A stretch of 64,000 nucleotides of DNA from an uncultured Gemmatimonadaceae bacterium (GCA_964637355.1 CAZWVG010000004.1:1517-65516), one strand, 5' to 3'. Positions 35,219 to 57,751 are shown, numbered from the stretch's first letter. A program made the numbers and translations. The notes: generated by a model not told the origin, from the letters alone.

Positions 35219-35860
35219 CTACTTCTTCCCGAACTCGAGTCCGACGTAGAACGACAGCACGCGATTCTGGATCTTGAAGTCCGACGAGATATCCGAGAAG
35301 CCGTGCGAATATCGCGCGCCGAGCGTGCCGCGAAGCTGCGCGAGCGGGAATCCGATACCGCCCCCGATCACGCCGCCGAAGTCCACCGAGTTGACGGAGT
35401 CGACGTCGTCATCGCAGTTGGAGTCGACGCTCACGCCGCCGCCTGATGCGCCGATCTTGCAACTGAGCTTGAGTCCAACGTAGGGACCAACGTAGGCGTG
35501 CGGCGCTACGCCGCCCTCCGTGCGGCTCTCCAACTGCAGAAGGAGCGGGACGTCGAGATACGCGAGCTTGAAGGAGACTTTCGCCGAGATGTCGCCTCCG
35601 CTGATGGAGCTCTCGGCGCCCTTCCGCGCGAAGAGCAATTCCGGCCGGAACGACACACCTCCGGACAGCGGCTTTACGACGTACGCACCGATCATGAAGG
35701 TCGTCAGTCGATCCACATCTTCCGCGTCGCTCCCACCAAACGTGGCGGAGCTGAGCCCTCCCATTACTCCGAACTTTGGCGCTCCGTCCGAGGACTGCGC
35801 GGCGAGCGGCATCGACAACGTCAAAAGCAACAGTGTCACGACCCGGTCACGTACCCGCAT
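35219..35860 (-). CDS. small outer-membrane beta-barrel protein (OmpW/OmpA-beta-barrel-like)
   Basis: Signal peptide 'MRVRDRVVTLLLLTLSMPLAAQ' from the ATG at 35860. Alternating beta pattern and terminal 'YVGLEFGKK'. Confidence 0.65.
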   Translation of the reverse strand: MRVRDRVVTLLLLTLSMPLAAQSSDGAPKFGVMGGLSSATFGGSDAEDVDRLTTFMIGAYVVKPLSGGVSFRPELLFARKGAESSISGGDISAKVSFKLAYLDVPLLLQLESRTEGGVAPHAYVGPYVGLKLSCKIGASGGGVSVDSNCDDDVDSVNSVDFGGVIGGGIGFPLAQLRGTLGARYSHGFSDISSDFKIQNRVLSFYVGLEFGKK

Positions 35861-35957
35861 GGTTCCCTCCCTTCGACACGTTGTGAGAGCGCGCGGCACC
35901 CCAGTGCTGCGCAGCATGACACTAAAGCACGTGTGTGTGTAGGGCAAGCGCGGTGGG

Positions 35958-36309: not shown

Positions 36310-37074
36310 CTATGTCGACCGTGCCAGACTTACCGCTTCGGTCACGAGCAACTCGTGCGCCTCTCGCCCCTCATGACCCCGAAACACGCGGCCACTTGCT
36401 GAACGCGGATAGAAGCTCGGATGGGACAGGGCCGCCCAAACGGACGACCCGCCTGAATGCAGCTGAACGTTAGAAAGTATCGATAACCCGCGCTCGTCGA
36501 TCTCCCGCAGTGTCGTGCGCGACGTCCACGGTTCGAGTCCGCGGCCGAGCGGCGCGACGAGCGAGGGTACCCAGGCGCCCAGCACGAGCACGAGGCGAGG
36601 CTGCTGGACTTCGAGCTGTACCCTTAGGAAGTCGCGGCACTCGGTGACAAACCGTGGGCTTAGTGAACCAGGGTATCGGCCGGTCGTTGCGGCGCCAAGA
36701 CGTAGTCCCATGTAGAAGTTGGTGAAGAAGCACGACTCGAGCGGAACTCCAGCCTCGCGGAGCATCTTGGTCAGCGATCGCCAGGTGGGTTGATTAGGCG
36801 ATTCCATTCCAAGCTCAAGTGACTTCTCGTAGCCGCGCTCAGAATGAAAGTCGTGACCGAGTACCATGACACCGCCGACGGGAAACTCTGCCAGGACGTC
36901 GGAGCGCGCTGGGTTCCAGAGGCCTAGGCCTCCCGGGAAGAATGAGGTGTACGCGATGGGCGCAGGGACTTGCAAGCATCCGTCGGGATACCCGGCAATC
37001 GCCAGGTGCGCTTGCCAAAGCCGACGCGCAGAATGCTCGGCGGCGTCGCCACTCATTGATCTGCGTTCATTCAC
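36310..37074 (-). CDS. uracil-DNA-glycosylase-superfamily protein (divergent, family unassigned)
   Basis: The UDG-fold motif order is 'GGVMVLGHDF' (motif A position), 'CFFTNFYMG', 'PRLVLVLGAWV', 'LSHPSFY' (HPS motif B). The first codon at 37074 is GTG (alternative ATG at 37056). It overlaps or abuts the HNH gene. Confidence 0.55.
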   Translation of the reverse strand: MNERRSMSGDAAEHSARRLWQAHLAIAGYPDGCLQVPAPIAYTSFFPGGLGLWNPARSDVLAEFPVGGVMVLGHDFHSERGYEKSLELGMESPNQPTWRSLTKMLREAGVPLESCFFTNFYMGLRLGAATTGRYPGSLSPRFVTECRDFLRVQLEVQQPRLVLVLGAWVPSLVAPLGRGLEPWTSRTTLREIDERGLSILSNVQLHSGGSSVWAALSHPSFYPRSASGRVFRGHEGREAHELLVTEAVSLARST

Positions 37075-38014
37075 GGGGCAGCACCAACTTCATCACGAGT
37101 TTCCGCGCCTCATCGATTGAAAGAGGCGGTGTCCGTCGGTGCAAAACGGCGTGACAGTTAGGACAGACCGGTCGCAAGTCGGCGATAGGGTCGGTACTCC
37201 GCTGTTCTGAGGTTGTGGCAAGCGGATTCAGATGATGAACATGTATGAGATCCCTCGCAATCGGACCGTATCGGGCTTCCAGGCTCACCTCGCACACGCA
37301 GCAAGTCGTACCAAAATGTGCGATGCACGCGCGTCGCGCGGCGGAGTTCCTCTCACGCGCAGACTGCACAACATCACGCACACTCCCTTCGTCGAAGGTG
37401 CTAACCACATTCGGTTCTAACTCGCTGAAGGACCCATCGCTCGCGGGCGCACTTCCTTCAAGAGCGACACGCACGTACGTCGGCTGCGGAATCGGCTTGC
37501 CGCTCAACTCGCCAAGCAGGCGGACCATGCCCGGGTGATGCGACTTGGGAGTCGCCCCGTTGATGCCCGTGGACGCCGCCACCTCCAGATGCTTAAGGTG
37601 CGCTTCCTCAATCGCTTCAAGGCTATCTGCAAGCCCAGTCGACGCCTCAATCCCAAAGACGGCATACGTTGAGTCCGGAGCGGACGCATACCCTCCCGGC
37701 GACTGTAGGTCTCCGCGAGCGTTTAGCGCGAGAGCCGACTTCCTCCCGAGCGTCGGCAAGTGAACCATCACGGCAATCAGCCCTCGCTGCAACGCGATGG
37801 CTTCCAGACGGCCGACGTTGAGTCGCAGGCGGGACGGTGACTTGGAAAGGCCCCACCTCGCCGGAGTAAGTTCATGCGCTATGCGAATCGAAGTCGCCAG
37901 TCGATCGACGGCGAGCGCACGTACGCCTTTGTCTGGCAACAGGCGCTCGAGATAGGAGAATAGTTTCTCTTCCTTCCATCTCTCGACGTAGGCTTCGGAG
38001 TAGTCGGCCGTCAT
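37067..38014 (-). CDS. HNH endonuclease with an uncharacterised ~220-aa N-terminal domain
   Basis: C-terminal 'CCVCE...DLIHVHHLNPL...VCPNCHAVLH' is an HNH/His-Me finger with a Cys4 zinc site. Confidence 0.8.
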   Translation of the reverse strand: MTADYSEAYVERWKEEKLFSYLERLLPDKGVRALAVDRLATSIRIAHELTPARWGLSKSPSRLRLNVGRLEAIALQRGLIAVMVHLPTLGRKSALALNARGDLQSPGGYASAPDSTYAVFGIEASTGLADSLEAIEEAHLKHLEVAASTGINGATPKSHHPGMVRLLGELSGKPIPQPTYVRVALEGSAPASDGSFSELEPNVVSTFDEGSVRDVVQSARERNSAARRACIAHFGTTCCVCEVSLEARYGPIARDLIHVHHLNPLATTSEQRSTDPIADLRPVCPNCHAVLHRRTPPLSIDEARKLVMKLVLPRE

Positions 38015-38125
38015 GCTTCGAACGTGGGTAATGGAGTTCGACGTCTGAACGGAGCAAGAACTTGGCGATGCGTCGGCGTGTCGACTGCTGTATGCGTGAT
38101 CATTTCCTTTCCGCGTGTAGGAAGT

Positions 38126-38833
38126 TCATTCAAAACCGGCAACAGGAAGAGCATTCAACTCTGCCCTCGCCTCGCGCCACGCGGGATAGTGCTCGCTCAA
38201 CAGCTCCACAAACCGCGCACTGTGCGTCGGTACCCTCAGGTGCACCATCTCGTGCACCACCACGTACTCCAGGAGATCCTTCGGCTTCTTCACCAGCTCG
38301 GTGTTGAGCCTGATGTGATGCGCAGCCGGGTTGCAGCTCCCCCACTTCGTCTTCATGCGCTGTAGGAAGTACCGCGACACACGAACCTTCAGGCGACTCT
38401 CCCACTTCTCGATCAGCGGTGGTACGGCGCGGTGCAGCAGCGCCTTGTGCCAGGCGTGCAGTACGGCAGCCCGTTTAGATCGATCGGCCTCCGGGCGGAC
38501 GGTAAGCGTGATGCGCCGGTGGTCGAGCGTCACGCTCGGCTGTTCGTCACGCTCGACGACCTTCAGGAGATATCGCTTTCCCCACACGTAGTGGCTCTCG
38601 CGCGTGACCAAGGCCCGCCGCGGCTCGCGCGCCTGCGCTCGGAGCTCCCTCCGGCGGGCGCGAATCCAGCCCAGCCGCGAGATCGCATACGCGCGCGCCA
38701 CTTCGAGACGCGTCGCGGTAGGCGCCACGAGAGTCACACGCCCTGTCGGCGGATGTACCGACAGGTGCACGTGTTTCACATCCTTCCGCGTCACCGCGAC
38801 CGAAATGTCGCCGAGACGGATTGTCTCGCTCAT
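38126..38833 (-). CDS. M48/DUF45 (YgjP-like, SprT-like) zinc metallopeptidase
   Basis: '[36 protein letters not shown]' contains HExxH. ATGA start/stop overlap with hsdR at 38830-38833. Confidence 0.85.
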
Positions 38834-41800
38834 TCGTATCCGCGTATCTGCTTCAGCAGCCCGAACAACGCTTTGGTCGCTGCACGATTGCGGTGGAGCA
38901 GGGGGTATAGCGCGTTGAGCACCTGAGCCTCGCGCGCCTGGTCGCCCTTCCAGCCGGCAGGGGCGCGCTCACGAAGCGCGCGGTCGATCTCTAGGGCGAG
39001 GTCGACGAGCTCGCTCTCCTCCACCGGCGGCGACTCGGCGACCTGAGTCGCGTCGCCGTCCCGCTGAGCAAGGATCTGCGGGAGATTGCGGAAGATGACC
39101 GTGGCTTCCAGACGGCCGTGCAATGCCGCCGGCACCTCGTCGTGCGCTCCCTTCGCGGCTAGTTGCCGCGCCAACCCTTCGGCCTTTCGAAGGAACGCCT
39201 CGTACGCCGCGGTATCCGCGCGGCTCTGTGCGATGAGGTCATCGAGCAGTGCGGACATCTGCTCGTAGAAGCGCGGATCGGTCAGCTGATCGCGAATGAT
39301 GGTCTTGCGGACGTTGTTGATGATCCCTTCCGCGATCGCGTTGCGAGACAGCTTTCCTGCTGCATTGAGCTTGCGAGCGATCGCGTCGTTGATCCCAGTC
39401 TCGACGATCAGCTCGACGAGCGAGAGCTCGCCGAGCGCGCCAATGTTCGTCGCCCGGTCTGCCTGGACGTACGTGTTGAGGAGGTGGCGCATGTCGGCCT
39501 CGTACGGCTTTATGTCCAGCTCCTCACCCGAGTGCTTCTTGATGGCCGAGCGGATCTCGCCGTGGAACTCGACCTCCTGAAGGAGCTGCGCCGCCTCGGC
39601 GTCGCTGAAGCCCGTCTCGGCCAGGTTCTGCGCGATCTCAGCATAGGCACGGACAAAGGTTGCAACGCCCTTGTAGTACGCGATCCTCAGCGCCTCGGTC
39701 TCGTTGAGCGCATTCGGATTGGAAGCGTCGCCGCAGAAGTAGTGGAGGAACTGCTCCACCTGCTGCGGTGGCGCCACCGGCGCGCACAGGTAGTGCAGCG
39801 CCTCGCGTGCTTCGTCGAGCTTCCGGCGTCCCTCGACGAGCCAGTCCTTCAGCTGGATGTTGTTCGGCCCTCCATTGCCCGGGTCGGTGTCGAGTTCGTC
39901 GGAGCTGTAGACGGCGATCGCTTCCTCCACTTCTCCGAACAGCTCCTTGTAGTCGACGATGTGCCCGTAATCCTTGTCGTCGCCGTCGAGCCGGTTGGTG
40001 CGACAGATGGCTTGGAACAGGTTGTGGTCGCGCAGCTCGTTGTCGAGATAGATGTACGTGCAGCTTGGCGCGTCGAAGCCAGTGAGGAGCTTGCTCACCA
40101 CGATGAGCAGCTTGAGGTTGGCCGGTTCGTGAATGAAGCGGCGCTTCGCTTCCTCCTCGTACTGCGTGGTCGTCTGACCATACTTCAGCACGTGCTGGGT
40201 ATAGGTGTCGAACTTGTAGCGCTCGTCGCTCTTGGACGACTCGCGGGAGATCGCGTTGTGGTTCGGCTCGTACGACGTGATGATCCCGCAGTACTGCCCG
40301 AAGGGCGTGTTCTGAAAGAGGCGGAAGTAGTGGCACGCGTCGTAAATCGACGGCGCCACGAGGATCGCCGTCCCGCGATCGTTGTTGAGTCGCGGCTTGA
40401 GGCTGAAGTCCTCAATGATGTCGGCGATGATGCGCTGCTTGCGCTCTCCCGCGCTCATCAGCTTCTCGAGCGTCGCCCACGTCTTGCGCACGAGCGCCTT
40501 CTGGAAGTTGTTTAGCCCCCGAGTCTTCTGTTCGAACCACGCATCGATGGCGGCTTGTGAGGTGAGCCGTTGGGGTACGTCGCGCGCCTCGTACTTGAGG
40601 TCGAGGATCACGCCGTCGGCCACCCCTTCATGGAACTTGTAGGTGTGGATGTAGGTGCCGAAGACGTCGCGCGTCATCTGCTTGTCCTTGCGCAGCAGAG
40701 GTGTCCCTGTGAAGCCGATGAAGATCGCCCCCTCCAGCCAGCGCTTCATCTGCGCGTTCATGTCGCCCCCCTGCGTGCGGTGGCATTCGTCCACGAAGAC
40801 GTAGAAGCGCCCCAATGTACGAGGCGGTTCTCCCTGCAGGTCCGAGACGTCGAACTTGTGGAGCAGCGCGCATAGCAGGCGGGGCGTGGCGCTCCCCAGC
40901 TTCTCGACGAAGTCGGCTCGGGAAGTGATCCTCGGCGACGGCGAGTCTTCCCCGATGACCCCCGCGTTCATCATCACACCCATGATCTGCTTGTCCAGCT
41001 CATCGCGATCGGTGATGATGAGCACGCGAGCCGCAGCGTCGTGTTCCAGAAGCCACTTGGCGAGGAGCACCATCAGGATGCTCTTTCCGCTCCCCTGGGT
41101 GTGCCAGATGACGCCCCCTTCTCGCTTGGCGACCCGCTCCTGTGCCGCCTTCACGGCGAAGAACTGGTGCGGGCGCGGGACCTTTTTGTGGCCGGCGTCG
41201 AACACCATGAAGTTCCGGACGAGGTCGAGCAGTCTCGCCTTGCTGCACAGCTGCGCCAGCGGTCGATCGAGCAGCGCTCCTTCCACGGGAGTCGCGGTGT
41301 TCGGCGCCTCGTCCTTCCATTGCACGAAGAACTGCTCTGGCGTGCCGGTTGTCCCGTAGCGCAGCCCCTGCGAGTCGCTCCCGGCCAGTACCAGTTGCAC
41401 GGTGCTGAAGAACTGCTTGTTGAAAATCTCTTCCTGGTTGGTGATCAGCTGCCGCACGCCGTCGGCCAGCTCCACGGAGCTGCGCTTGAGCTCCAGCACC
41501 GCGATGGCGAGCCCGTTGAGATACAGCACCACATCCGGCCGTCGCTGATACCCGCCCTTGAGCGTCACCTCTTCGGCGAGCGCGAAGTCGTTCTGCTCCG
41601 GGTGCTCCCAGTCGATCAGGTGCACCGTCTCATGTGCCTGCCCCGGTGCCACCTGCACGGGGACGCCGTAGCGCAGGAGCTGGTACGTGCGCAGGTTCGC
41701 CTGGTAGAGCGTGACGCCCGTGGAGTCAGCGGCTGTTTCGAGTTTGTGTAGCGCGCCCGAGATGTGGGCGGCGGAATACCCGCGCGCAGCGAGGTTCGCG

Positions 41801-41952
41801 CGCAGGATCCCCGCTTCGATGCCGCGGTTGTTCTCGCGTTTGCTCCAGTCGCCGAGGTAGCGGAAGCCGAGTGAGTCGGGGCGCGAATCGTTCGTGAAGA
41901 GCGCGACGACGCGGTCTTGTGTGCGACGTTCGGAGCGCGGCCTCTCACTCAT
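38830..41952 (-). CDS. hsdR: type I restriction enzyme R subunit
   Basis: N-terminal PD...ELK nuclease ('[22 protein letters not shown]'), SF2 motor '[10 protein letters not shown]' and '[10 protein letters not shown]', and a C-terminal helical domain. The ATG at 41952 overlaps the upstream TGA (ATGA). Confidence 0.95.
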
Positions 41953-43367
41953 CACAGAAGCTCCCAATGTCCGCCCTTTCGCGGGCCGACGAAGCGGAGC
42001 TTGCCGGCCTTGACTAGCTTCGCCGTGGCCCGTTCCACCGCGCTGAGCGACTTGCCCAATCTCGCGGCGACGGCCGCCAGCGTCAGTTCAGGGTCGGTCG
42101 CCAGTGCGGCGAGAATCTGTTCCGGCGTTTTCACCCGCCTGTTCACCGGCGTTTCTACCGGCGTTTCTACCGGCGTTTCTACCGGCGTTTCTACCGGCGC
42201 TATTCCGCCGCCCGCTTCCGCCTCCCTTGTACGCCTAACGACATTCGCGGCGTACGGGAAGGTGATCCACAGCCCGGATTCCTCGGTCAGGATCACGGGC
42301 GCCGGGAATCCTGCCTGTCGGCAGGCGGCGAACATGCGCTCGATCCCACGCCCCCACGCCTCGATCTCTCCGGCCCGGAAGAAAACGTTGGCGAGATCCG
42401 GATTGAACGGCTGGGAAGCGTGCTTCTTCTTCAGCTGCGCCACGGTCCATGCCGATGGCAACTGACCGGGGTTCCAGATCATGAGCTTGTCGGCGTACAC
42501 GCTGATCTGAACTGGTACGCCTGACGCGTAGTCCTTGTGGATGATTGCGTTCAGCACTGCTTCCCGAAGAGCCGCCTCGGGAACCGGCAAGGTCTCGACC
42601 CGCTGAATACCACGGTACGTGATCCCCGCCTTGAGATACTTGGTGAGCAGTAGGTCAATCGTCCCGCCCACCTGCGAGAATAGGTCGCCGTGGACCTCGT
42701 CGTGGTACAGCAGGTCGTCGTCAGTCCGGAAGTAGCCGATCTTCACGTACGCGCCGGTCACGAACTGCTCCGGCTCGGGGTGGAACGCCAGCACGGCCGC
42801 GCGCTTGAGATGCGTGCCCTCGCGCAGATGCAGCTTTTCGATCAGCCCGGTCGTCGTTTCCTTCAGGTCGGCGGCACTCATGCGCCGGCTCTGACGGGCC
42901 TTGGCTCGAAACGCCTCGATCGCAGCCTTGGACAGGGCGCGTACCGAGACACTCGGAACCGGAACACCGTCCCACGCACGCCCCTGCTTGCGCAGTAGGA
43001 ACTTGTCGAGTGCGGCCCCTTTGAGCTCCTGCTTCGTGCTCCCGCTGCGAAGATGGTACTCCCCCTTGTAGCTCACGGGGTAGGGATACGGCTCAACGCG
43101 GATCTCGATCAGGTCCTTCCCCGATGCGCGCACCAGGAGCACGTCGGCCATGATGCCGAGCACGTCGCGAATCTTGTTCGGTAGGTCGGCGAGTAGCTTC
43201 TTCGCGTCCGCCACCCCAACGGCTACTCCCTTGTCATTGCGCCCGATCACCAGCACGCCGCCCTCGGCGTTAGCGAACCCACAGAGCCAACGCAGGTACT
43301 CGTCGCGCCACGTCTCCTTCCATTCGACGTGTTGGGATTCCATGCGAGAGCGGCGCCGCTCAGGCAT
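41952..43367 (-). CDS. AlbA_2 (Schlafen-like) / HATPase_c_4 / wHTH protein
   Basis: '[11 protein letters not shown]...[17 protein letters not shown]' is the AlbA_2 N-terminus, 'LNAIIHKDY' the ATPase-like middle, and there is a C-terminal winged helix. Start at 43367 or 43343. Confidence 0.75.
42145..42200. repeat. 12-bp tandem repeat (ACCGGCGTTTCT x4 plus a partial unit) encoding (VETP)n
   Basis: Units at 42145, 42157, 42169 and 42181, then 8 nt of a fifth. It is in frame in the linker before the C-terminal wHTH of the AlbA_2 protein. Confidence 0.95.
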
Positions 43368-45324
43368 CGGCCACTTCTGCAAGCACCTCAGACTCTACAT
43401 ATCGCTTGAATGACGCGTCGTCGGTAAAGCAGCGAAAGCCTGCTTGGCTCGCAAGCGTCACGGTGGCGAGTTCCTCATTGAGGAGCACGACCACAGGCTG
43501 ACTGAGCTCTTCCTGCAGGCCGTTAGGCCAGGCAAGATCGAGGACCGCCAACTGTTCTCCGCTGTTGGAATCGGCCAACTCGAACGACATCACGCCGCGC
43601 GGTAGCCCGCACGATTCCACCCACTCATTCATCTCCTCGAGCGCTTCCTCCTCCTCTTCGCTGCTGATACCGCCGCGGACGGCGAGTGGTGTCGGAAGTG
43701 TCGCGGACGCGCCGGCGAGCCATCGTACATCACCGTGCAACAGTTCTTCCATGCGGCGATTGAGTTCGGCTGCCAACAGCACCTTGCGGGCCTCGAGGAA
43801 GTCCCGGAACCGCTCGATCTTCCAGAGCGCGGGATCATCCGGTATCCACTGCGAGGCGAGCGCACCCTTGTGCGCCGCCTCGACCTTCGGGAAGTAGTCT
43901 TCCGGGAGGCGATCGGTGATGCGCAGGTTGGTGTCCTTGGTCAGGAAGCAGAAGTTCGCGAGTGCGTTCACCTCTGCCCGCTTGTAGTTGCGCTTGTAGA
44001 GTTGAGCCTTCGGGAAGATGTGGTGTACCTCCAACCGACTCATCCTCCCCAGCAGACTCGCCTTGAGCGGGAGGCCAGTGCCCCAGTCACGCGATTCACC
44101 CATTCGCGTTAGCAGATAGAGCACCGGATAGAAGCGCGCGCCAAGGCTCCAGCCGGTAAAGTGGCCCGCTTCTGCGCGGAGGCCGCCGTGCCAGAGTCGT
44201 AGTTGTTCGAGCAGCTTGTCGAGGCCACCGTCTGCGCCCTCGAGCGCGGCAAGGTCCTGATCGATGAATGATTCCGTCGAGCCCGAGAAGCGCCCCCACA
44301 TCGCTGCCTGCACATACCAGAAGAGCAACTTGTCGCGCTCGTGCTCATTCATCGGGCCAAGCCGATTCGCCAGTCGCTGGTCGAGATAGCGCACCATCAC
44401 CGGCACGCCAAATCGTCCGAAGAAAACCTGGTCGTGGTCGAGCCCGAGCCGGCCGGCGATCAGATTCAGGCTGGTCTCGATGTGCCGCGTCGTGCGCGCG
44501 AGCGCCTCCTGTACCTCAGCCGCAGACTTCTCGTGGAGGTACAGAAACTTGGCCTCGCCGGTGAGCACAGTGTTCACCGACCGAAGCAACCAGTCGAGCG
44601 AGAAGTGGTAGTCGCTCTGCGCCCATGACTTGAGGGTGGTCTTCATCGTATCACGCCCCTCTGGCCAGTCGGCGCAGATCTTCGCGAGCGCAAGATCTCC
44701 CTTGGAGAGTTTGGTTCCCCCGCTGTTCACGCGGTTGAAGATGTCGACGACTACGTCGAGCGACTTGTCAGTCCCAGTGACCTCCTCGATGTGCAGATCC
44801 ACGTCGATGATTCCGAGCAGCCGGCTCAAGCGAGCGACGTAGTCGCCGACCTTGGCGGAGAGCTGCGGCTGCGCCGTTAGGCGCGTGACGAACAGTCCGA
44901 GTCCCGACGTACCTTGCGCCATCAGCTCCGTCACGTCGATCCAGCGCGGATCGTCCTTCATCTTCGCCGGCTGGTAGAACTCGAAGCGTTCGTCTTCCAG
45001 GTGGAAGCGAAGTCCGGTAAACGCCTTGGCGTTGCCGTCGAAGAAGCGCGGGGGCTTGCCGCGTACGACGCCGTAGAGCGACGTCATGCGCTGCTGTCCA
45101 TCGAGCAACAGCTTTACGATGCCGGCAGCCAACGGGCCGTCGCCGCGATGCGTGGCCGTCAAGGACTCGGTTGCCCACACGAGCAGTCCACCGACGGGAT
45201 GCCGGCGATAGAGCGAGTCGAAGAGTCCGCGAACCTGGTCGCGATTCCAGACGTAGCCACGCTGGAACTCGGGCAGTGCCATGTGGCCGCTGTCGATGTG
45301 GTCGAGGATGGTGGAGATCTTCAT
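43360..45324 (-). CDS. DUF262 (ParB-like NTPase) + His-Me/DUF1524-like nuclease, GmrSD/BrxU-type, with an extra ~150-aa C-terminal domain
   Basis: 'LPEFQRGYVWNRDQV', 'LLDGQQRMTSL' and later 'LEVHHIFPKAQLY...NALANFCFLTKDTN'. Confidence 0.8.
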   Translation of the reverse strand: MKISTILDHIDSGHMALPEFQRGYVWNRDQVRGLFDSLYRRHPVGGLLVWATESLTATHRGDGPLAAGIVKLLLDGQQRMTSLYGVVRGKPPRFFDGNAKAFTGLRFHLEDERFEFYQPAKMKDDPRWIDVTELMAQGTSGLGLFVTRLTAQPQLSAKVGDYVARLSRLLGIIDVDLHIEEVTGTDKSLDVVVDIFNRVNSGGTKLSKGDLALAKICADWPEGRDTMKTTLKSWAQSDYHFSLDWLLRSVNTVLTGEAKFLYLHEKSAAEVQEALARTTRHIETSLNLIAGRLGLDHDQVFFGRFGVPVMVRYLDQRLANRLGPMNEHERDKLLFWYVQAAMWGRFSGSTESFIDQDLAALEGADGGLDKLLEQLRLWHGGLRAEAGHFTGWSLGARFYPVLYLLTRMGESRDWGTGLPLKASLLGRMSRLEVHHIFPKAQLYKRNYKRAEVNALANFCFLTKDTNLRITDRLPEDYFPKVEAAHKGALASQWIPDDPALWKIERFRDFLEARKVLLAAELNRRMEELLHGDVRWLAGASATLPTPLAVRGGISSEEEEEALEEMNEWVESCGLPRGVMSFELADSNSGEQLAVLDLAWPNGLQEELSQPVVVLLNEELATVTLASQAGFRCFTDDASFKRYVESEVLAEVADA

Positions 45325-45334
45325 GGATGTCGAA

Positions 45335-46063
45335 TCATGTCGCGGTAACAGGAACCCAGATCCAACCTTCGCCCTGCGTCACCTCGTCCGGTGGTGGAAC
45401 AAGGAGCTCGCGCCGAGTATCGAAGAGGTGCGCGATCACGGCGCAGATGCGAGCGTCATCCTTATCATCGTGCCCCAGCGAGGGTTGGCCGCCGAGGACT
45501 GCGGTGACGGCCGGTGTGCTACGGCTGGCGGCGGGATACGTCTCGATCGCGCGAAACCCATCACCATCGGTCCAAATGCCGCAGCTCTCGACGTGTGGTG
45601 CGAACTTGGCCAGGACGTGCATCCCTTTCGTTGCCTGGCTTCCGATCATGTCCTTGACCGCCGACAACGGACTCTTGCCGCGCTCGAAGAGGTAGCGTTC
45701 GGTGTAGCGGAACAAGTAGCGATTCAGCCCCGACGTTTTGTGGGGCTCGACGTAGCCCTGCCGGGAGATCAGGCGCACGAACTCGATCGGGAAGCCGAGC
45801 GGTGTGTCGATCGCCATGGTGATGCGCGGCGGCACTGCGGGATAGGGCGCGCGGCACTTGGTGAAGAGTGCACGGAGCCAGTCGCTGATGCTGCGTGACG
45901 AGGCGATGCACTCACGCAGGTTGCCGCGCCAAGGTGTTCCGACGATGGCCAGACTCTCGTCGAGAATGACGATCGCATCGCGGCTCGCGCCGTTCTTGTC
46001 GCAATTCCAGCCGCCGACGTCCCAGCCGATGAAGAACGACGGTCGCTCGATCTCGTTCTTCAT
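45335..46063 (-). CDS. DUF429-like predicted RNase-H-fold nuclease
   Basis: 'FFIGWDVGGWNC' (first strand with Asp), 'AIETYPAAS', 'HDDKDDARICAVIAHLF'. The family call is from memory. ATGA overlap with the hsdS stop. Confidence 0.5.
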   Translation of the reverse strand: MKNEIERPSFFIGWDVGGWNCDKNGASRDAIVILDESLAIVGTPWRGNLRECIASSRSISDWLRALFTKCRAPYPAVPPRITMAIDTPLGFPIEFVRLISRQGYVEPHKTSGLNRYLFRYTERYLFERGKSPLSAVKDMIGSQATKGMHVLAKFAPHVESCGIWTDGDGFRAIETYPAASRSTPAVTAVLGGQPSLGHDDKDDARICAVIAHLFDTRRELLVPPPDEVTQGEGWIWVPVTAT

Positions 46064-47313
46064 ACCAGCCGAGTCTTCCCGGTGAGCAGCTCCTGCATCA
46101 TCCCCTGCTTGAGCCCGCGAGTCTTGTCGCGGCGGGCTTCGAGGGCAGCGATCTCCGCATCCATGTCCGTGAGCACCTCCGCGATCGCAACCTGCTCGGT
46201 CACCGACGGCAAACGCATCTCGACACTGGCCACGTGCGCCCGAGTCGTCGCGTACACCTTCGTCCCGGCGGCGAGTCGCCGGAGTTGAGAGGCAAACGCC
46301 GGGCAGAACTGAAGGAAGCCCTTGAAGCCATCGGCCAGCACCGACTTGTCGAATCGCGCGGCAATCGTGTGCAGTCCCGCCACGACCTCGGCGGAGCCCA
46401 CACCCTTCATCTCCACTGACTTGCTCACCCCGGCGACGTCCTCCGACGCATCCGCGATCACCAGGTCACCGTCCTGCAGACGCGCGAGGCGCGCGGCCTT
46501 CGCTTCCGGAAGGCATGGCAGCAAGCCCGGCGTCATGAAAGAGTCGCCGGCGGCGTGCACGTCACCGTAGTGGACGTCTCTGACTCTTCCCTCGGGGAGA
46601 AGCTCGGCGCGCGAGTTGACTCCATTCCGCAGAAACGTGACGTGGTCCCCCAACCGCCTCACCTCCCACTCCCCACCAAACCCCGGCAGCCGCGTCTTCC
46701 CGGTGAGCAGTTGCTGCATGGCCGCCTGCTTGAGATCGCGTTTCTTGGCGTTGAGCCGCTCCAGCCCGTCCAGCAGCGCATCCATATCGCTCAAGGCGGA
46801 GGCGATGGCGCGTTGCTCGGCGAAGGTCGGCGGAAGTGGGACCTGTATCGAACGCACCTGACTGAAGTTCAGTCCTTGTCGATTTCCTCCAGCTTGGAAG
46901 CTGTCAACTTGCCGCTGACCGCCGGATGAGAGAAGAAATTGGCAGAGGTACTGCGGATCCAAAGACTGAGCTGCTGTGCGGACGACGCACACGTGCTGAT
47001 TGACGTTGCCACCTTCGAGTCGGGCGTCGGCGACCGCGCAGCGACCGATCGAAGCACCGGTGATGTTTAGGAGGACGTCGCCACGTTGCAGCTCGGTGTC
47101 AGGGAAGGTCGCGTGCGTCGAATCGTCGATGAACGCAATGTCATCGAGCAACAAGACTCCCCACCCAACATTCTGACTTCGCACAAAAGGGCGACCCGCA
47201 TTCCTGTATACGCGTTGCCCGCCGCTCGGCGTAACCCCGCTACCAACCTTCACCGCGCGTTCGCCAATCGACTCGACTGTCCATTCTGCCGGAAGGATGC
47301 CGATGGCCGTCAT
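46060..47313 (-). CDS. hsdS: type I R-M specificity subunit with two target-recognition domains
   Basis: Central 'FAEQRAIASALSDMDALLDGLERLNAKKRDLKQAAMQQLLTGKTRLPGF' and C-terminal 'TEQVAIAEVLTDMDAEIAALEARRDKTRGLKQGMMQELLTGKTRL' conserved repeats. A 17-nt identical DNA repeat occurs at 46073 and 46694. ATG at 47313 (alternative GTG at 47337). Confidence 0.9.
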   Translation of the reverse strand: MTAIGILPAEWTVESIGERAVKVGSGVTPSGGQRVYRNAGRPFVRSQNVGWGVLLLDDIAFIDDSTHATFPDTELQRGDVLLNITGASIGRCAVADARLEGGNVNQHVCVVRTAAQSLDPQYLCQFLLSSGGQRQVDSFQAGGNRQGLNFSQVRSIQVPLPPTFAEQRAIASALSDMDALLDGLERLNAKKRDLKQAAMQQLLTGKTRLPGFGGEWEVRRLGDHVTFLRNGVNSRAELLPEGRVRDVHYGDVHAAGDSFMTPGLLPCLPEAKAARLARLQDGDLVIADASEDVAGVSKSVEMKGVGSAEVVAGLHTIAARFDKSVLADGFKGFLQFCPAFASQLRRLAAGTKVYATTRAHVASVEMRLPSVTEQVAIAEVLTDMDAEIAALEARRDKTRGLKQGMMQELLTGKTRLV

Positions 47314-47327
47314 CTTGTATCCCCGCT

Positions 47328-49748
47328 TCACCTCCACGCTGATCTCATCGACTTGAGGTGATCGTCAACCCGCACTGAATGCCCCGCCACGTTGTCGACG
47401 AGCGTTTGCAGCGGAGTCACGTATCGCTCCGCCAGCTCGCGAAGTCGACTGGTTAGTCTCTGAGACACACGATCCAGCTCCCCATTCACCTCAGCCGACA
47501 ACCGCGCCATCCACTTCTCGTCCACAACCAGCGTCTTCACCTCCCCCTCGGTCAGTGTCGGATACTTGTCATACGACAACCCGTCGAGCGCCGCCTCCAG
47601 CTCCCTCACCGCACGCTTGAGTGAGGCCTCACTCTCGGAGAGTTCCAGCCAGCGCTTCAGCACCGCCGCTTCGTCCTTCGCCTCCTTGTCGCCCTTGATC
47701 TCCTTCAACCGCGCGTTGACCTCCGCCTTGGCCACCTTGTCGAGCGCGCCGAAGTATCCCTCCTCGCCACCGTGCTCCTCCTCCATCTCGGCGAGTTCCG
47801 AGGTGAGTCCCTCCAGCGCCACCTGCATCGTCTCGACCGCCTCCTGCTCCTTCGCGAAGCACTGCGCGACGAGCAACGGCTTGGGAACCAGGTCGCACGC
47901 CCACCCCTTGTCCTTCCGCTTCCCCTTCTTGTCGGTCTCTACGATGCGCGCGGTGCGCGCCACCCAGCCGTCGGCGGCGATGAGGTAGCAGTCGTCCTGC
48001 ATCGTCTCGCCCCAGAAGTCCATCAGGTGCTGGTAGACGTCGTAGGAATCGAGCAGCGGTGCCCCCTTGAAGGCATCGAGCAGCCGCTCGGCGATGGACT
48101 CGATGAGCGTCCTGGGATGGCCCCCCTTGTCGAACGCCGTGAGCTGCAACGTGGCGTCGTGGCGCCAGCGGTCGAAGCGCTCGCGCGACAGCCGGTTGAA
48201 GGCGGCGAACTCCTCGTGCTCGAGGATGGCCTTCTTCACCTCGCCGATCGGGAGCCTGAGCTGCGAGTACCCCGGGCGTCCGGCCGACTCGAACAGCACC
48301 GCGCGCACGGACGGCAGCACTTCCCAGTAGGTGCCGAGTGCGTCAAGGTCGCGATTGGGGATCCCTCCGCGCAGGTGGCCCTCGATGTCCTGCAGGTCCT
48401 CCGGCTCGCTCGTGTCGACGTAGCGCGGGAGGTTGAGGTTGAAGTCGTTCTTCGCATCGGCGATCTCGTCCAGCGGCACCAGGCGCGCGTAGCGCGGAAC
48501 GTCTACCTGCTTGCGGAAAGTGTCGACGATGCGATGGATGTCCTGCTCGCGCAGCCGGTTCTTGTTCCCGTCCTTGATGAACCCCTTGCTCGCGTCAATC
48601 ATGAAAACGCCCTTGCGTGCCGCTGCGTTCTCCTTGTCGAGCACCAGAATGCAGGCGGGGATCCCCGTGCCGTAGAACAAGTTCGCCGGGAGCCCGATGA
48701 TTCCCTTGAGTATCCCGGAGCGCACCAGCTTCTCGCGGATCGCTGCCTCGGCGTTGCCGCGGAAGAGCACGCCGTGTGGAAGGATGCAGGCTCCTTTCCC
48801 TGCGCTCCTGAGGGAGCGGATGATGTGCAGCAGGAAGGCATAGTCTCCCTGCTTGGCCGGCGGCACTCCCCAGGCAAAGCGTTGCCATGGGTCGTTGTCA
48901 GGCGTTAGGCCAACGCTCCACGTCTTGACCGAGAACGGCGGATTGGCGACGACGTAGTCGTAGGTGCGCAGCTGCTCGCCGTCCTTGAACTTGGGCGCGG
49001 CAAGCGTGTTCCCCTGCTGGATGTTGGCCGTGGGGAAGTCGTGCAGGATCATGTTCATGCGCGCGAGACCGGCGGTGGTCACGTCCATCTCCTGCCCTTC
49101 CAGCGTGATGTGCTTTCCCGCCTGCGCGGCGACCTTGAGCAGCAGCGAGCCCGAGCCGCACGTCGGGTCGTACGCGGTCGTCGATGCCTTGGTGTTCTGC
49201 GCCGAGATACCGATCACCTGGGCGATCACGCGGCTCACCTCGGCCGGCGTGTAGAACTGCCCTTTGCTCTTGCCACTCTCGGTGGCGAAGTGGCGCATCA
49301 GATATTCGTAGGCGTCGCCGAGAATGTCGTCGTGGTCGGCGCGGTTCTGCGAGAAGTCGAGCTCCGGCTTCTCGAAGATCGCGATCAGATCCGACAGGCG
49401 ATCCACCATCGCCTTCCCTTCGCCCAGCTTGTTGGGATCGTTGAAGTCGGGAAAGTCGCTGCGCGCCAGCCGCTCGTTCGCCTCGATGAGGGGCTGGATG
49501 ACCTGCGTGTTGATCCTGTCGCCGATGTCGCTCCTTCCCTTGAGCGCCACCATGTCCGCGAAGCTCGAGCCCTTCGGGATGATGACGGGCGGCGCGAAGT
49601 CTCTGCTGTTCCCGTACTTGTCGCTGATGTACTTGATGAACAGCATGAACAGGACGTAGTCCTTGTACTGACTTGCATCCATGCCGCCGCGCAGCGCGTC
49701 ACACGACGCCCAGATGGAGGAGTAGAGATCGGACTTCTTTAGTGCCAT
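47328..49748 (-). CDS. hsdM: type I R-M N6-adenine DNA methyltransferase subunit, long form with a ~300-aa coiled-coil C-terminal extension
   Basis: HsdM N-domain 'LYSSIWASCDALRGGMDASQYKDYVLFMLFIKYISDKY', AdoMet 'AYDPTCGSGSLL', catalytic 'VVANPPFS'. Confidence 0.95.
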   Translation of the reverse strand: MALKKSDLYSSIWASCDALRGGMDASQYKDYVLFMLFIKYISDKYGNSRDFAPPVIIPKGSSFADMVALKGRSDIGDRINTQVIQPLIEANERLARSDFPDFNDPNKLGEGKAMVDRLSDLIAIFEKPELDFSQNRADHDDILGDAYEYLMRHFATESGKSKGQFYTPAEVSRVIAQVIGISAQNTKASTTAYDPTCGSGSLLLKVAAQAGKHITLEGQEMDVTTAGLARMNMILHDFPTANIQQGNTLAAPKFKDGEQLRTYDYVVANPPFSVKTWSVGLTPDNDPWQRFAWGVPPAKQGDYAFLLHIIRSLRSAGKGACILPHGVLFRGNAEAAIREKLVRSGILKGIIGLPANLFYGTGIPACILVLDKENAAARKGVFMIDASKGFIKDGNKNRLREQDIHRIVDTFRKQVDVPRYARLVPLDEIADAKNDFNLNLPRYVDTSEPEDLQDIEGHLRGGIPNRDLDALGTYWEVLPSVRAVLFESAGRPGYSQLRLPIGEVKKAILEHEEFAAFNRLSRERFDRWRHDATLQLTAFDKGGHPRTLIESIAERLLDAFKGAPLLDSYDVYQHLMDFWGETMQDDCYLIAADGWVARTARIVETDKKGKRKDKGWACDLVPKPLLVAQCFAKEQEAVETMQVALEGLTSELAEMEEEHGGEEGYFGALDKVAKAEVNARLKEIKGDKEAKDEAAVLKRWLELSESEASLKRAVRELEAALDGLSYDKYPTLTEGEVKTLVVDEKWMARLSAEVNGELDRVSQRLTSRLRELAERYVTPLQTLVDNVAGHSVRVDDHLKSMRSAWR

Positions 49749-49796
49749 TCGGTGAGTTGGGCTAAGTATTGCGTGCAGCGGGCGCCCGAATCGGGG

Positions 49797-50648
49797 TCAG
49801 GCGCTGGCTTGCGCGGCTTGCAGTTCGTTGAGTGTGCGGCCGTCCTTTGCTTTCCACGCGTCGCGTCCATTTGCACTGCGGCCGAGAATCACACCGGCGG
49901 CCGAACTTGGCGAGGGGAACACATAGTTCTGCGTGAAGACGTACCTGTCTTTTCCCGCCTTGAGTACGCCGTTCTCGGCGAGTGCAGCTCGCAGTTCGAC
50001 TATGTACGGATAACAGGACTTGACCTCGTCCAATGCGGCTTCGCTCCCTGTGAGGACGACGAAGCCCTCGGCGGTCTCGAATCCCCGTGCTGTCACGCCG
50101 CGTCCGCTCATCGAGAGTTCCGGCGCAGCGGGCGCCTGTAGCGCTACAGTCGAGAAGACGCCGAGTCCAAGGACCGGGAAGCACATCAGCGCTTCTTCGA
50201 GAAAGCCCTCAGCCTCCGCAGCGTCCGATTCGGATAGCGAGGGAAGGGCGGGGCGATTGCCGTTGTCGAGCGTGCAGCGCTTGGCTTTGTCAGCCAGGTC
50301 GACCAAGCGGGACTCGAGGAACTGAACGTGCGCCTTGTTGAGGTTCTCGTCCTTGCTGGTGAAGGCGAAGCAGGTCGTCCAGAAGTCCTTGTTCGCCGCG
50401 TGCTGCTCGAGCCGAGGGCGAATCGGATCGCCTTCTCCGACGTAGACGCGCGGTAGGCCGGACTCTTCGGGCGGGCCGACGAGGACGTAGACTCCAGTTC
50501 GCGTCATCTCCCGTCGGTGCCTCCCCTCCGGGAAGAGAGGGCGCGGTATCAGCAGCCCGGCGCCGCTCCAATTGGACTTCTCGATGATGCGGATCCCCTC
50601 GGGATCGCCGGCGGGGACGAAGATCTTGATGGTGTAGGGTCGCGGCAT
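49797..50648 (-). CDS. GIY-YIG nuclease-like protein with a DUF4357-type C-terminal domain
   Basis: 'TGVYVLVG...VYVGEGDPIRPRLEQH...' is GIY-YIG-like. C-terminal 'AEGFVVLTGSEA...' resembles DUF4357. It is the first gene of the minus-strand chain. Confidence 0.6.
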   Translation of the reverse strand: MPRPYTIKIFVPAGDPEGIRIIEKSNWSGAGLLIPRPLFPEGRHRREMTRTGVYVLVGPPEESGLPRVYVGEGDPIRPRLEQHAANKDFWTTCFAFTSKDENLNKAHVQFLESRLVDLADKAKRCTLDNGNRPALPSLSESDAAEAEGFLEEALMCFPVLGLGVFSTVALQAPAAPELSMSGRGVTARGFETAEGFVVLTGSEAALDEVKSCYPYIVELRAALAENGVLKAGKDRYVFTQNYVFPSPSSAAGVILGRSANGRDAWKAKDGRTLNELQAAQASA

Positions 50649-50982
50649 GACGATCACTCACCGCCGAAATGACAGCGGTCATCTGGGCATCGCCCGTGTG
50701 AGGCGCTCCGAGCTTGGCGCGGTTCGCGCTCGCATCGCGGCGTTGCTGTCACTTCTCCCCCACCCCCCTGTCTCCGCATCGCGCGCTCCGGTGACCAGCT
50801 CTCGGACGTCCGACCTGACCGAGCCACGATAACCACGGGTACCGACAGCGGCCAGAACCGTGGTTCCGGGGAATCGACCGAACTCCTCGGCACAAGCACC
50901 ACGCCTCTCCAGCGAACACGCTGCCGGAAGCGTGGCCGGTCGCGACGGCAAGGGAAACATCTGAGCTGGCGCAGAAACTATA

Positions 50983-51053
50983 CAGTACTTGCCATAGGAC
51001 AGTAAGTAGCACATAGTACTGTCAGTACTGCCATTAACACCTCACAGGACTGC
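50983..51053 (+). promoter_or_regulatory. array of four operator-like decamers in the AT-rich spacer upstream of 51057
   Basis: CAGTACTTGCC (50983), TAGTACTGTC (51014), CAGTACTGCC (51023), CAGGACTGCC (51044). Three contain the palindrome AGTACT. Spacings are 31, 9 and 21 bp. Confidence 0.5.
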
Positions 51054-51056
51054 CCA

Positions 51057-51632
51057 ATGGGAAAGATCTCAATCGACGTCGATCAGGAGGTGTTCGAGCA
51101 TCTGCAGGGACGCGCCACGCCGTTTGTCGACAGTCCCAACGATGTACTGCGCCGCCTTCTTCTGACGCCGCTACCCGAAGTTCCGGAGGCGTCGAGGACT
51201 CGACAGCGAGCTACCTCAGCTGAGCGACGTGCGGCGAGACACGGTGGCCCGGTGCCGGCCGACGCCTTCGTCTCGCGAGTGATTCATCAGGAGCTCGGCG
51301 AGGGCTTCAAACGCCGCCCGCCGTTCCGGATGATGTTCGAATCGAAAGACGCGCTGGCGTATTTCCAGAACTTCAACAAGGAGACGGATCATCTCTGGTA
51401 TCGGGTGACCCAGAATCCTTGGCGCGAACTCACGTCAGCGCGGAAGAAGGCATGGCTCTGCCTCAGCAACCCCGCCGAGGGTTACTGCTACGTGATCCCC
51501 GTTTCCGAAATCCAGGCGCAGGTGCAGCGCGCGCGCTGGAGCCGTCCGTATCTGGAGGTCAACATCGATCCGGCCACCTCACGCTGGACGGAACTCGATT
51601 GGCGGCTGGATCAGTATCTCGTTCGTGCCTAA
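51057..51632 (+). CDS. hypothetical protein with a SeqA-N/Arc-like ribbon-helix-helix N-terminus
   Basis: 'ISIDVDQEVFEHLQGRATPFVDSPNDVLRRLL' parallels the SeqA N-terminal pattern I.vD.e.y.yi....ges.sdiLRR.L. The C-terminal 110 aa are unassigned. Confidence 0.45.
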   Translation: MGKISIDVDQEVFEHLQGRATPFVDSPNDVLRRLLLTPLPEVPEASRTRQRATSAERRAARHGGPVPADAFVSRVIHQELGEGFKRRPPFRMMFESKDALAYFQNFNKETDHLWYRVTQNPWRELTSARKKAWLCLSNPAEGYCYVIPVSEIQAQVQRARWSRPYLEVNIDPATSRWTELDWRLDQYLVRA

Positions 51633-51717
51633 CAATAGTCTGCGAGAATTTCGGCGTCGTTGAGCGCTGACTGACTCGAGTGGCTCGCTGAGACGTCGAT
51701 CAACTTTCGACCAACTA

Positions 51718-53214: not shown

Positions 53215-53380
53215 CGCGGCAGGAGAGGGGCGCAGCGCGCGAAGTGGGCTCGGGAATGCTCCGCCATATTGGCAATTGAGCGTGTGGTTCCCCAAGCGCC
53301 GTGTTGCATCGAACGGCCAACAATCGTCCTCCCTTGCATGCGCGTCGATTCCTGTGACGCCACGGCACCCGGAGGACTCA

Positions 53381-54007
53381 ATGAAGGTGTGTCCATACTG
53401 CGCCGAAGACATCCAAGATGGCGCAATCATCTGCAAGCACTGCCGCTCTTCGCTGAAGGACTCGAATCAACGCAGCGGTGTAGCGCTGAGCTCGGCGATC
53501 TCGCCCAAAGCACCAGTTACGGTGAGGACACCGCTGGTTCTGGCCCTCGCACTGGCCGCGGTCGTCGCACTCGTTGTGATCATCGCGCGCCCCGCGCCGG
53601 ACGCTTCGCCGCCGCCCGCTGCGGTGATGACGGCGACTCCGCCGCGGCCTCCGAAAGTGTGGAATCTCGCCTCCATGTCGGACTTCGACGTAAGCGCCGG
53701 CAAGATCCTGAGTTTGGAGTGGGATGTCCCCGTCGACCAGCCGAACTGCCGCCTCACTGGACGCGTCGAGGTTACCGAGGGTGGCAGCAAAGACGTGCAG
53801 GTCTTCCTCACGTCGCGCGACGAGTTCACCAACCTCGAGAATGGGCACAACGCCAAGTCGTACCTGGCCACTGACAGAACCACGGTCGCGACGTTGGACG
53901 TGCGGGTGAATGAGCCGGGAGCGAAGGTGCTCGCGATCAGCAATGCCTTTTCGCTGCTCACGTCCAAGCACGTACAGATGCGGGATGTGAAGGCGGTCTG
54001 TACCTAA
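53381..54007 (+). CDS. zinc-ribbon / single-TM / extracytoplasmic beta-sandwich protein
   Basis: GGAGGA lies 4 nt upstream of the ATG at 53381. 'CPYCAEDIQDGAIICKHC' is followed by the TM helix 'LVLALALAAVVALVVII'. Confidence 0.6.
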   Translation: MKVCPYCAEDIQDGAIICKHCRSSLKDSNQRSGVALSSAISPKAPVTVRTPLVLALALAAVVALVVIIARPAPDASPPPAAVMTATPPRPPKVWNLASMSDFDVSAGKILSLEWDVPVDQPNCRLTGRVEVTEGGSKDVQVFLTSRDEFTNLENGHNAKSYLATDRTTVATLDVRVNEPGAKVLAISNAFSLLTSKHVQMRDVKAVCT

Positions 54008-57407: not shown

Positions 57408-57751
57408 TTCGCACTCGGAACGAATAGGAAGCGCTGCGATCCCAACAATGCGCCGGAGTGCGGGCGCTTCGCCAGCGAAATGCGGTGCAACGCTCTCGCG
57501 CCCCCTATGGCAGGTGACGTGCACGCATCGTTCGAGAGGCGTGAGCGCTGATCGAGCTGCGACAGCTAGAGATCAAAAGGCATACGCCTGGTCGACAGAC
57601 TTGCGTCATAGCCAGTATCTGACGCTCGCTAGACGGGCCCTGACGCGCCTGAGACGGGCTCGACGGATCAACTCCATCGCTGGAATAGCGCTGCGGAGCA
57701 GCGGTCACGAAGCCGCGCCGCACCCACCCAATACCGCGACGGAGAATTGAC

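Follow-up and report, generated by a model that had tools for sequence, protein, structure and literature searches.

When a type I restriction-modification (R-M) system is found split open by unrelated genes, it is natural to ask whether the whole assembly works as one coupled machine, or whether independent modules have come to share a favoured site. The question is raised here by ten open reading frames (ORFs) which run head to tail on the minus strand, from 50648 (or 50657) down to 36310, within a 64,000-nucleotide stretch of DNA from an uncultured Gemmatimonadaceae bacterium (GCA_964637355.1, CAZWVG010000004.1:1517-65516; the whole stretch is referred to below as the window). In this chain hsdR is parted from hsdM and hsdS by genes for a DUF429-like protein, a GmrSD-like protein and an AlbA_2-type protein; a GIY-YIG/DUF4357 gene precedes hsdM, and genes for a YgjP-like peptidase, an HNH protein and a protein with a uracil-DNA glycosylase (UDG) fold follow hsdR (Table 1). 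The original prediction, drawn from the sequence alone, took the chain for one unit of co-regulated and possibly physically coupled layers of defence. Its description of a type I R-M system opened by three unrelated defence-type genes is borne out by our analysis; the locus itself is very probably a mosaic defence island raised on a four-gene core, hsdM-hsdS-hsdR-ygjP, whose layers would be independent and probably co-expressed.

Gene order in related loci

Relatives of the locus were gathered through two anchors. An alignment of 25 homologues of the DUF429-like protein led to 80 species-representative loci (L011-L090), which were searched by tblastn with the ten window proteins at a threshold of 1e-6, at which type I systems from other families may escape detection beside some of the DUF429-like genes. 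The 80 closest metagenomic relatives of HsdR (L104-L183, 75-85% HsdR identity) served as an unbiased denominator, and ORFs in related loci are simple longest-ORF calls. In the hsdR-anchored set, both hsdS and hsdR are visible in 58 loci (hsdS is unseen in the other 22, mostly short contigs), where the two genes are split by 0.5-6.9 kb in 20 and adjacent in 38; as the majority of these close relatives have them adjacent, we take the split to be derived. The genes found as cargo in this set are of the AlbA_2 type in about nine loci, a GmrSD-like orthologue in one (86% identity) and a DUF429-like gene in one, and further include PDC-S01, S02, S05, S06, S15 and an HEC-06-like gene.

The DUF429-anchored loci present the same picture from the side of the cargo. 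In approximately 26 of the 80, the DUF429-like gene has hsdM/hsdS on its 5' side and hsdR (with YgjP) on its 3' side, all on one strand, and some 7 more show this in part at contig ends, for a total of about 33 of 80 species in which the gene is embedded in a type I system. The remaining loci have heterogeneous neighbours, including PDC genes, integrases, a CBASS effector, a type IV enzyme and housekeeping genes. Other cargo in the R-M loci of this set comprises PDC-S02, AbiE, PDC-S15, SoFic and PDC-M31. All three cargo genes occur together in the window and in a Lysobacterales metagenome-assembled genome (MAG; L014), which has the identical seven-gene order hsdM-hsdS-DUF429-like-GmrSD-like-AlbA_2-hsdR-YgjP with identities of 68% (DUF429-like), 81% (GmrSD-like) and 69% (AlbA_2-type). 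The DUF429-like and GmrSD-like genes occur without the AlbA_2-type gene in L011, L044 (Methanosarcina) and L058, the DUF429-like and AlbA_2-type genes are paired in L018 and L030 (in the latter the AlbA_2-type gene comes first), and each gene is also seen as single cargo, the GmrSD-like gene in L110, the AlbA_2-type gene in L118 and L142, and the DUF429-like gene likewise. The presence of each cargo gene thus varies without regard to the other two or to the R-M genes, for which reason physical coupling is not favoured.

Start/stop overlaps of co-directional genes are common in prokaryotes, and for this reason the three overlaps among the nine junctions of the chain are unremarkable alone; the non-random part is the recurrence of the same overlaps in relatives. 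The 4-nt overlap of hsdS with the DUF429-like gene is kept in 20 loci from Proteobacteria, Verrucomicrobia, Acidobacteriota, Sumerlaeota and an archaeon (the Methanosarcina MAG L044), despite an HsdS identity of only about 35%. The hsdR and YgjP-like genes overlap by 1, 4 or 11 nt in 24 of 26 loci, and the AlbA_2/hsdR overlap is kept in L014 and L018. As these overlaps recur across loci, the signals of translational coupling are real and old, and they travel with gene pairs, not with the ten-gene chain.

The type I core and its peptidase

On the strength of their sequence matches, the assignments of HsdM, HsdS and HsdR are unambiguous. HsdM matches N6_Mtase (2e-98) and HsdM_N (4e-14) in Pfam, MTase_I over its full length in PADLOC, and TIGR00497 with 263 bits against a cut-off of 242.75. 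Past the N6_Mtase domain, its C-terminal ~350 aa (window 47328-48400; residues ~450-806) are without a Pfam domain and are kept full-length in relatives at 55-80% identity. HsdS matches Methylase_S in Pfam and Specificity_I in PADLOC (2e-78, full length, residues 2-424), and has two target-recognition regions, with a 102-nt repeat inside the gene whose copies stand 621 nt apart. HsdR combines an N-terminal nuclease domain (HSDR_N, 8e-34), a superfamily 2 translocase (SWI2_SNF2, 3e-66) and a T1R_D3-like region, and scores 471 bits against TIGR00348 (cut-off 284.55).

The metallopeptidase encoded after hsdR had been counted among the trailing passengers, a placement which the relatives contradict. 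A YgjP-like gene stands immediately 3' of hsdR in 76 of 76 close relatives with enough sequence (L104-L183), and in this family of type I systems it behaves as an invariant fourth member of the core. It has no assigned role in the type I-locus literature cited here. Probably the SprT-like peptidase is tied to HsdR turnover, by loose analogy with ArdC, a metalloprotease-domain protein known to counteract hsdRMS.

Cargo at the hsdS/hsdR junction

The DUF429-like protein belongs to a family with 1562 homologues that is unusually conserved, with 60-74% identity across phyla, and in the alignment of 25 homologues the residues D15, D86, E174, D200 and D203 are invariant. The protein misses the gathering score of Pfam DUF429 (PF04250; E 0.035, with 14.3 bits where 23 are required), and weak matches to this model are obtained for 20 of the 25 relatives (best 5e-5). 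An AlphaFold2 (AF2) model, with a pLDDT value (the predicted score in the local distance difference test) of 78, has no Foldseek match below E 0.05; the weak top matches, all above that value, are mostly RNase-H-like folds (ExoI, EndoV, PIWI, RNase H1), in keeping with the RNase H-like superfamily to which DUF429 has been assigned in the literature. A sequence search against solved structures gave no meaningful matches for this protein or for the GIY-YIG/DUF4357 protein, and tblastn of the DUF429-like protein against plasmids returned one weak record of chromosomal size, which is uninformative. In nine loci the DUF429-like gene adjoins a NucS_C-type PDC-S02 gene.

The second cargo protein has an N-terminal DUF262 region with DGQQR at residue 75 and matches BrxU (7P9K, 6e-10). 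Residues 433-437 read HHIFP, with Asn residues after them; this motif, spotted by eye, is His-Me-like and resembles the DHIYP of BrxU. The C-terminus has no match to Pfam DUF1524 and does not align significantly with that of BrxU. Orthologues with 71-86% identity are found in L011, L014, L044, L058 and L110. HEC-05/BrxU functions as a single protein, and both the GmrSD and the AlbA_2 families are documented outside type I loci.

The third cargo gene stands directly 5' of hsdR in about nine of the 80 close R-M relatives as well as in L014, L018 and L030. A 12-nt tandem repeat at 42122-42205 of the window, within this gene, encodes four copies of ETPV in a linker before the winged helix-turn-helix (wHTH). 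In a comparison of loci L001, L002 and L003-L006, five copies are present in two Joint Genome Institute (JGI) contigs from the same organism, and four Logan short-read contigs stop exactly within the repeat; the difference reflects either a copy-number polymorphism or assembly instability.

Outer genes

The gene-order comparison does not uphold the ten genes as a unit, as the outer genes are essentially absent from the 160 related loci. By tblastn the GIY-YIG/DUF4357, HNH and UDG-fold genes occur in none of the 80 DUF429-anchored loci, and the 80 loci anchored on hsdR contain just one of them, the GIY-YIG type, seen once, 3' of YgjP and at 33% identity; upstream of hsdM, a GIY-YIG/DUF4357 gene is found in none of the 160. 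The three genes are locus-specific, separately acquired neighbours of the core.

The GIY-YIG label of the leading protein comes from its GVY(52) and YVG(69) motifs, Pfam GIY-YIG giving no match, and Pfam likewise detects no helix-turn-helix in it. The HNH protein has 969 homologues, several of which JGI names '5-methylcytosine-specific restriction protein A', and in the contexts examined these adjoin an MmeI-type enzyme or metabolic genes, with no type I or UDG gene near. The last protein of the chain scores just below the Pfam UDG cut-off (24.2 against 24.3 bits), and its AF2 model has the UDG alpha/beta fold, with Foldseek matches to UdgX, family-4 UDG, SMUG1 and TDG (E 6e-7 to 5e-4, TM-score 0.5-0.7, ~17% identity). 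It belongs to a small family of 76 clusters with invariant GHDF, FFTN and HPS motifs, whose members stand beside defence-type genes in three of three contexts (L098, L100, L102), namely genes for a DEAD-HNH helicase, a PLD-SNF2-DUF3427 protein and a SIR2 protein. The family may as such represent a glycosylase-type defence or counter-defence gene. HNH and UDG-fold homologues were never found together, nor with a type I system, in the contexts examined, and the idea that they form a conserved pair was rejected, the partner being missing in two HNH and three UDG contexts.

Taken over the whole chain, the Pfam and PADLOC runs confirm the predicted domain labels for hsdM, hsdS, hsdR, the YgjP-like peptidase, DUF4357, AlbA_2 with HATPase_c_4 and wHTH, and GmrSD_N. 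The remaining labels fared less well: DUF429 is sub-threshold, HNH is weak, GIY-YIG is a matter of motifs, and UDG, weak in Pfam, is recovered by fold.

Locus anatomy and base composition

All ten ORFs lie where they had been predicted, and JGI calls the same ten genes on a metagenome contig of identical sequence (3300028830 Ga0310361_1445553, 116.9 kb), with protein lengths, in chain order, of 283, 806, 425, 242, 654, 467, 1040, 235, 315 and 248 aa.

Table 1. Coordinates of the ten genes and two non-coding regions in the window, with the principal evidence for each.
Feature	Coordinates	Strand	Evidence or remark
Divergent intergenic region, 408 nt	50649..51056	.	Upstream of chain; presumed promoter region
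GIY-YIG-like/DUF4357 protein, 283 aa	49797..50648	-	DUF4357 3e-21; PADLOC PDC-S14 1e-100; 5' of hsdM
hsdM, type I methyltransferase subunit, 806 aa	47328..49748	-	Pfam, NCBIfam, PADLOC
hsdS, specificity subunit, 425 aa (GTG 47337) or 417 aa (ATG 47313)	46060..47337	-	Pfam, PADLOC
DUF429-like protein, putative RNase-H fold, 242 aa, cargo 1	45335..46063	-	PADLOC PDC-S44 5e-96
GmrSD/BrxU-like type IV restriction enzyme candidate, 654 aa, cargo 2	43360..45324	-	GmrSD_N 4e-25; HEC-05 3e-47
AlbA_2 (Schlafen-like)+HATPase_c_4+winged-HTH protein, 463 aa (ATG 43343), cargo 3	41952..43343	-	Pfam
hsdR, type I restriction/translocase subunit, 1040 aa	38830..41952	-	Pfam, NCBIfam
YgjP-like/SprT-like Zn-metallopeptidase, 235 aa	38126..38833	-	YgjP-like 7e-54 (Pfam); HEMVH at residue 194
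Spacer, 111 nt	38015..38125	.	Between conserved R-M block and two locus-specific trailing genes
McrA-like HNH endonuclease candidate, 315 aa	37067..38014	-	HNH 4e-4 (weak)
Divergent UDG-superfamily protein, 248 aa	36310..37056	-	AF2 pLDDT 95.8; Foldseek

Three ATGA junctions had been proposed, of which two are exact, that of hsdS with the DUF429-like gene (46060-46063) and that of hsdR with the YgjP-like gene (38830-38833); the third, AlbA_2/hsdR (41950-41954), is a start/stop overlap that reads TGATG, a 1-nt overlap with ATG at 41952, or GTGA if GTG at 41955 is the start. The predicted gaps of 48 nt (GIY/hsdM), 10 nt (DUF429-like/GmrSD-like), 16 nt (GmrSD-like/AlbA_2, ATG 43343) and 10 nt (HNH/UDG, ATG 37056) hold, as does the 111-nt spacer. 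At the hsdM/hsdS junction, a start at ATG 47313 would leave a 14-nt gap and one at GTG 47337 a 10-nt overlap, and since the JGI call and four relatives have the overlap, it is the favoured form.

A scan for promoters and terminators over 35.5-51.7 kb, uninformative at 63% GC, returned nothing on the minus strand above the shuffled expectation and no consensus promoter or terminator in the 111-nt spacer; within the 408 nt upstream of the chain, the sole site detected was sigma-70-like and on the plus strand. From about 31 to 54 kb the GC content is 62-64%, against 67-70% in the rest of the window. GC content at third codon positions (GC3) falls into three tiers, with hsdM (0.88) and hsdR (0.85) in the first, hsdS, the cargo genes, the GIY-YIG/DUF4357 gene (0.76) and YgjP in the second (0.75-0.79), and the HNH and UDG genes, beyond the 111-nt spacer, in the third (0.66-0.68), so that there is a step across the spacer from 0.78-0.85 to 0.66-0.68.

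Genes for outer-membrane beta-barrel proteins, native-like in composition, flank the low-GC block at 35219-35947 (-; GC3 0.79) and 54347-55198 (+; GC3 0.86), the former abutting the ten-gene chain. Three divergently transcribed genes at 51057-54007 (+; GC3 0.67-0.77) have no matches to defence models and encode a 191-aa protein whose N-terminus is faintly SeqA_N/ribbon-helix-helix-like, one of 498 aa that has no domain and a zinc-ribbon protein of 243 aa; one of them might regulate the chain. Farther out lie the PADLOC candidates PDC-S11 (5e-117; 56418-57524, -) and the Uma2-type PDC-S03 (3e-23; 31742-32320, -), in view of which the wider neighbourhood is also rich in defence-type genes.

Comparison with known systems

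That the chain was not a described system proves to be an overstatement, given published embedding, the families PDC-S14, PDC-S44 and HEC-05, and the precedents of RloF, RRDM and TgvAB. Payne et al. (2024; bioRxiv 10.1101/2024.01.29.577857) describe type I R-M, BREX, DISARM and Hma systems in which defence genes are 'embedded'. The window shows both marks of such cargo: the extra genes are nested on the same strand between type I core genes, and their families also occur outside the host system, as the DUF429-like gene does in more than half of its 80 loci. In that work the candidates PDC-S14 and PDC-S44 were predicted on the basis of genes embedded in type I R-M, DISARM or BREX systems, and HEC-05, which is BrxU, is reported as embedded in Hma systems; the relatives of the window likewise carry a rotating set of other PDC families. 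The text consulted does not single out the combination of these three cargo genes at one junction, and the AlbA_2-HATPase_c_4-wHTH gene of the window is without a strong PADLOC model.

The closest parallel in gene order is the RRDM island of enteropathogenic Escherichia coli (Nucleic Acids Research 2025, PMC12255303), rptR-hsdM-hsdS-darT-darG-hsdR-M48, which has anti-phage activity and an active, RptR-repressed promoter 5' of its first gene, and whose site its authors call a likely recombination hot spot. Both loci have a leader, hsdM, hsdS, cargo, hsdR and a terminal M48-family metallopeptidase (YgjP-like in the window). The RRDM cargo is the DarTG2 toxin-antitoxin and its leader a 79-aa repressor, whereas the window has three nuclease/NTPase-type genes and a 283-aa GIY-YIG/DUF4357 leader.

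Type IV enzymes of the GmrSD family (DUF262 with His-Me) have also been found inside type I clusters. Machnicka et al. (PMC4619093) found that GmrSD homologues have type I R-M genes as neighbours more often than any others, and identified DUF262 with Campylobacter jejuni RloF, situated between hsdS and hsdR. On VPI-2 of Vibrio cholerae, the GmrSD-like TgvAB lies within a type I cluster and confers protection from hypermodified phages that does not depend on the nuclease activity of HsdR; the whole cluster protects 10-100 fold better than tgvAB alone, a boost which also does not need that activity and which the authors credit to expression stoichiometry (PMC11411939). The complementarity proposed there, between unmodified and hypermodified phage DNA, would apply to the window as well. 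TgvAB requires two DUF262 proteins, whereas the window has one BrxU-like protein with both motifs and unrelated neighbours. The DUF429-like and GmrSD-like proteins were considered as an obligate pair of the TgvAB kind, which is disfavoured: each occurs alone, and TgvA is a DUF262 protein, not a DUF429 protein (PMC11411939). In the light of the Payne, Machnicka, RRDM and TgvAB precedents, the window locus is a new cargo combination in a known and widespread architecture, a well-stocked but ordinary example.

Proposed organisation of the defence layers

In the organisation we favour, hsdM-hsdS-hsdR-ygjP would be the ancestral unit and the hsdS/hsdR junction a site that repeatedly takes up single defence genes as cargo, occupied in the window by three autonomous modules, a putative DUF429-like nuclease, a BrxU/GmrSD-like nuclease predicted to be a modification-dependent type IV enzyme, and the AlbA_2-HATPase_c_4-wHTH protein. 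We infer that HsdM2S would methylate host DNA and, with HsdR, cut unmodified invading DNA, and that the GmrSD-like and McrA-like enzymes would cover phages whose modified DNA evades type I restriction. The DUF429-like, GIY-YIG/DUF4357, AlbA_2-type and UDG-fold proteins may constitute additional, putative nucleic-acid-targeting layers. Co-expression from one or more upstream promoters is probable through the tight packing and the conserved start/stop overlaps, and co-regulation of the chain is plausible on this basis; the modules themselves would act independently and not as one complex.

Several observations sit uneasily with this organisation. Searches of the island borders turned up no tRNA, integrase, att-like sequence or flanking direct repeat that would account for its arrival. 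Given the identical order in L014, joint transfer of the three cargo genes may have occurred on at least one occasion, and the retention of the hsdS/DUF429-like overlap in 20 loci and of the AlbA_2/hsdR overlap in L014 and L018 could point beyond shared transcription. Moreover, PADLOC gave no strong model match for the AlbA_2-type, YgjP, HNH and UDG proteins, and their 'defence' label therefore derives from context.

Alternative explanations

In the prr locus PrrC lies between hsdS and hsdR, the position that the DUF429-like gene takes in the window, and is restrained by the R-M complex; it would be a precedent for physical coupling. It is conceivable that the window encodes an integrated system of this kind, in which at least one of the embedded proteins, most of all the DUF429-like protein co-translated with HsdS, binds HsdMS/HsdR and stays inactive until a phage anti-restriction factor disables the R-M system, whereupon it acts. 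The persistence of the hsdS overlap across four bacterial phyla and an archaeon, and the high conservation of the family, are what one would expect of such a partner, and the superior protection afforded by the whole V. cholerae cluster could be read in the same way, although that boost is the one credited to stoichiometry (PMC11411939). The DUF429-like gene, however, has varied neighbours and no type I genes near it in more than half of its loci; it is present in one of the 80 closest R-M relatives, and hsdS and hsdR are unsplit in 38 of 58, and therefore neither partner needs the other. The ABC-ATPase and anticodon-nuclease domains of PrrC and RloC, and PADLOC matches to these proteins, are absent from all ten window proteins. 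Whereas nearly all PrrC is embedded in type I R-M systems, according to Payne et al. (2024; bioRxiv 10.1101/2024.01.29.577857), the cargo families of the window occur freely outside such loci. We consider an integrated system of this sort very improbable. Since the coupling of the DUF429-like gene to hsdS is conserved, a guarded-effector model for this protein keeps a small probability. A more elaborate version, in which the protein is an HsdS-co-translated accessory, a latent nuclease held by or signalling through HsdMS, and the YgjP/SprT-like peptidase is a fourth subunit controlling HsdR, strikes us as unlikely; if true, the locus would be a physically integrated multi-layer machine and not a set of neighbours.

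Two further accounts concern how the genes arrived. That the DUF429-like, GmrSD-like and AlbA_2-type genes form a three-gene cargo system inserted as a unit, in the manner of the two-protein TgvAB, is suggested by the presence of the same trio in the same order in L014, by the 10-nt gap or 4-nt overlap conserved between the DUF429-like and GmrSD-like genes in L011, L014, L044 and L058, and by the demonstration with TgvAB that embedded GmrSD-like systems can need a partner (PMC11411939). Against this, the GmrSD-like orthologue of L110 has no DUF429-like gene beside it, the AlbA_2-type gene is alone in about nine loci, and the DUF429-like gene lacks both others in most of its loci, often with the PDC-S02 NucS-like gene in their stead; HEC-05/BrxU acts as a single protein, and the order is reversed in L030. 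We hold a unitary insertion to be unlikely. As for a single horizontal acquisition of all ten genes as an operon-island, in one event and not stepwise, the depressed regional GC content, the shared direction of the genes, the absence of minus-strand terminator-like sites inside the chain (as far as a scan uninformative at this GC content can tell) and the identical copies present in several samples would all fit. The three tiers of GC3, the coincidence of the 111-nt spacer with a compositional step, the absence of the outer three genes from related loci (bar the one GIY-YIG-type gene) and borders at which integrase, tRNA and att-like repeats were not found argue otherwise, and the likelihood of a one-event origin is, in our estimation, very low.

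Conclusions

As a mosaic island on a four-gene core, the locus adds a well-resolved example of the hsdS/hsdR junction as a slot for defence cargo, and with its relatives it provides a clean comparative series for this R-M family, comprising unsplit, single-, double- and triple-cargo forms. It also yields three leads, which leave current understanding unchanged unless coupling is demonstrated: the invariant YgjP/SprT-like partner of HsdR, the conserved, hsdS-coupled PDC-S44 family, and the divergent UDG clade found in defence-type neighbourhoods.

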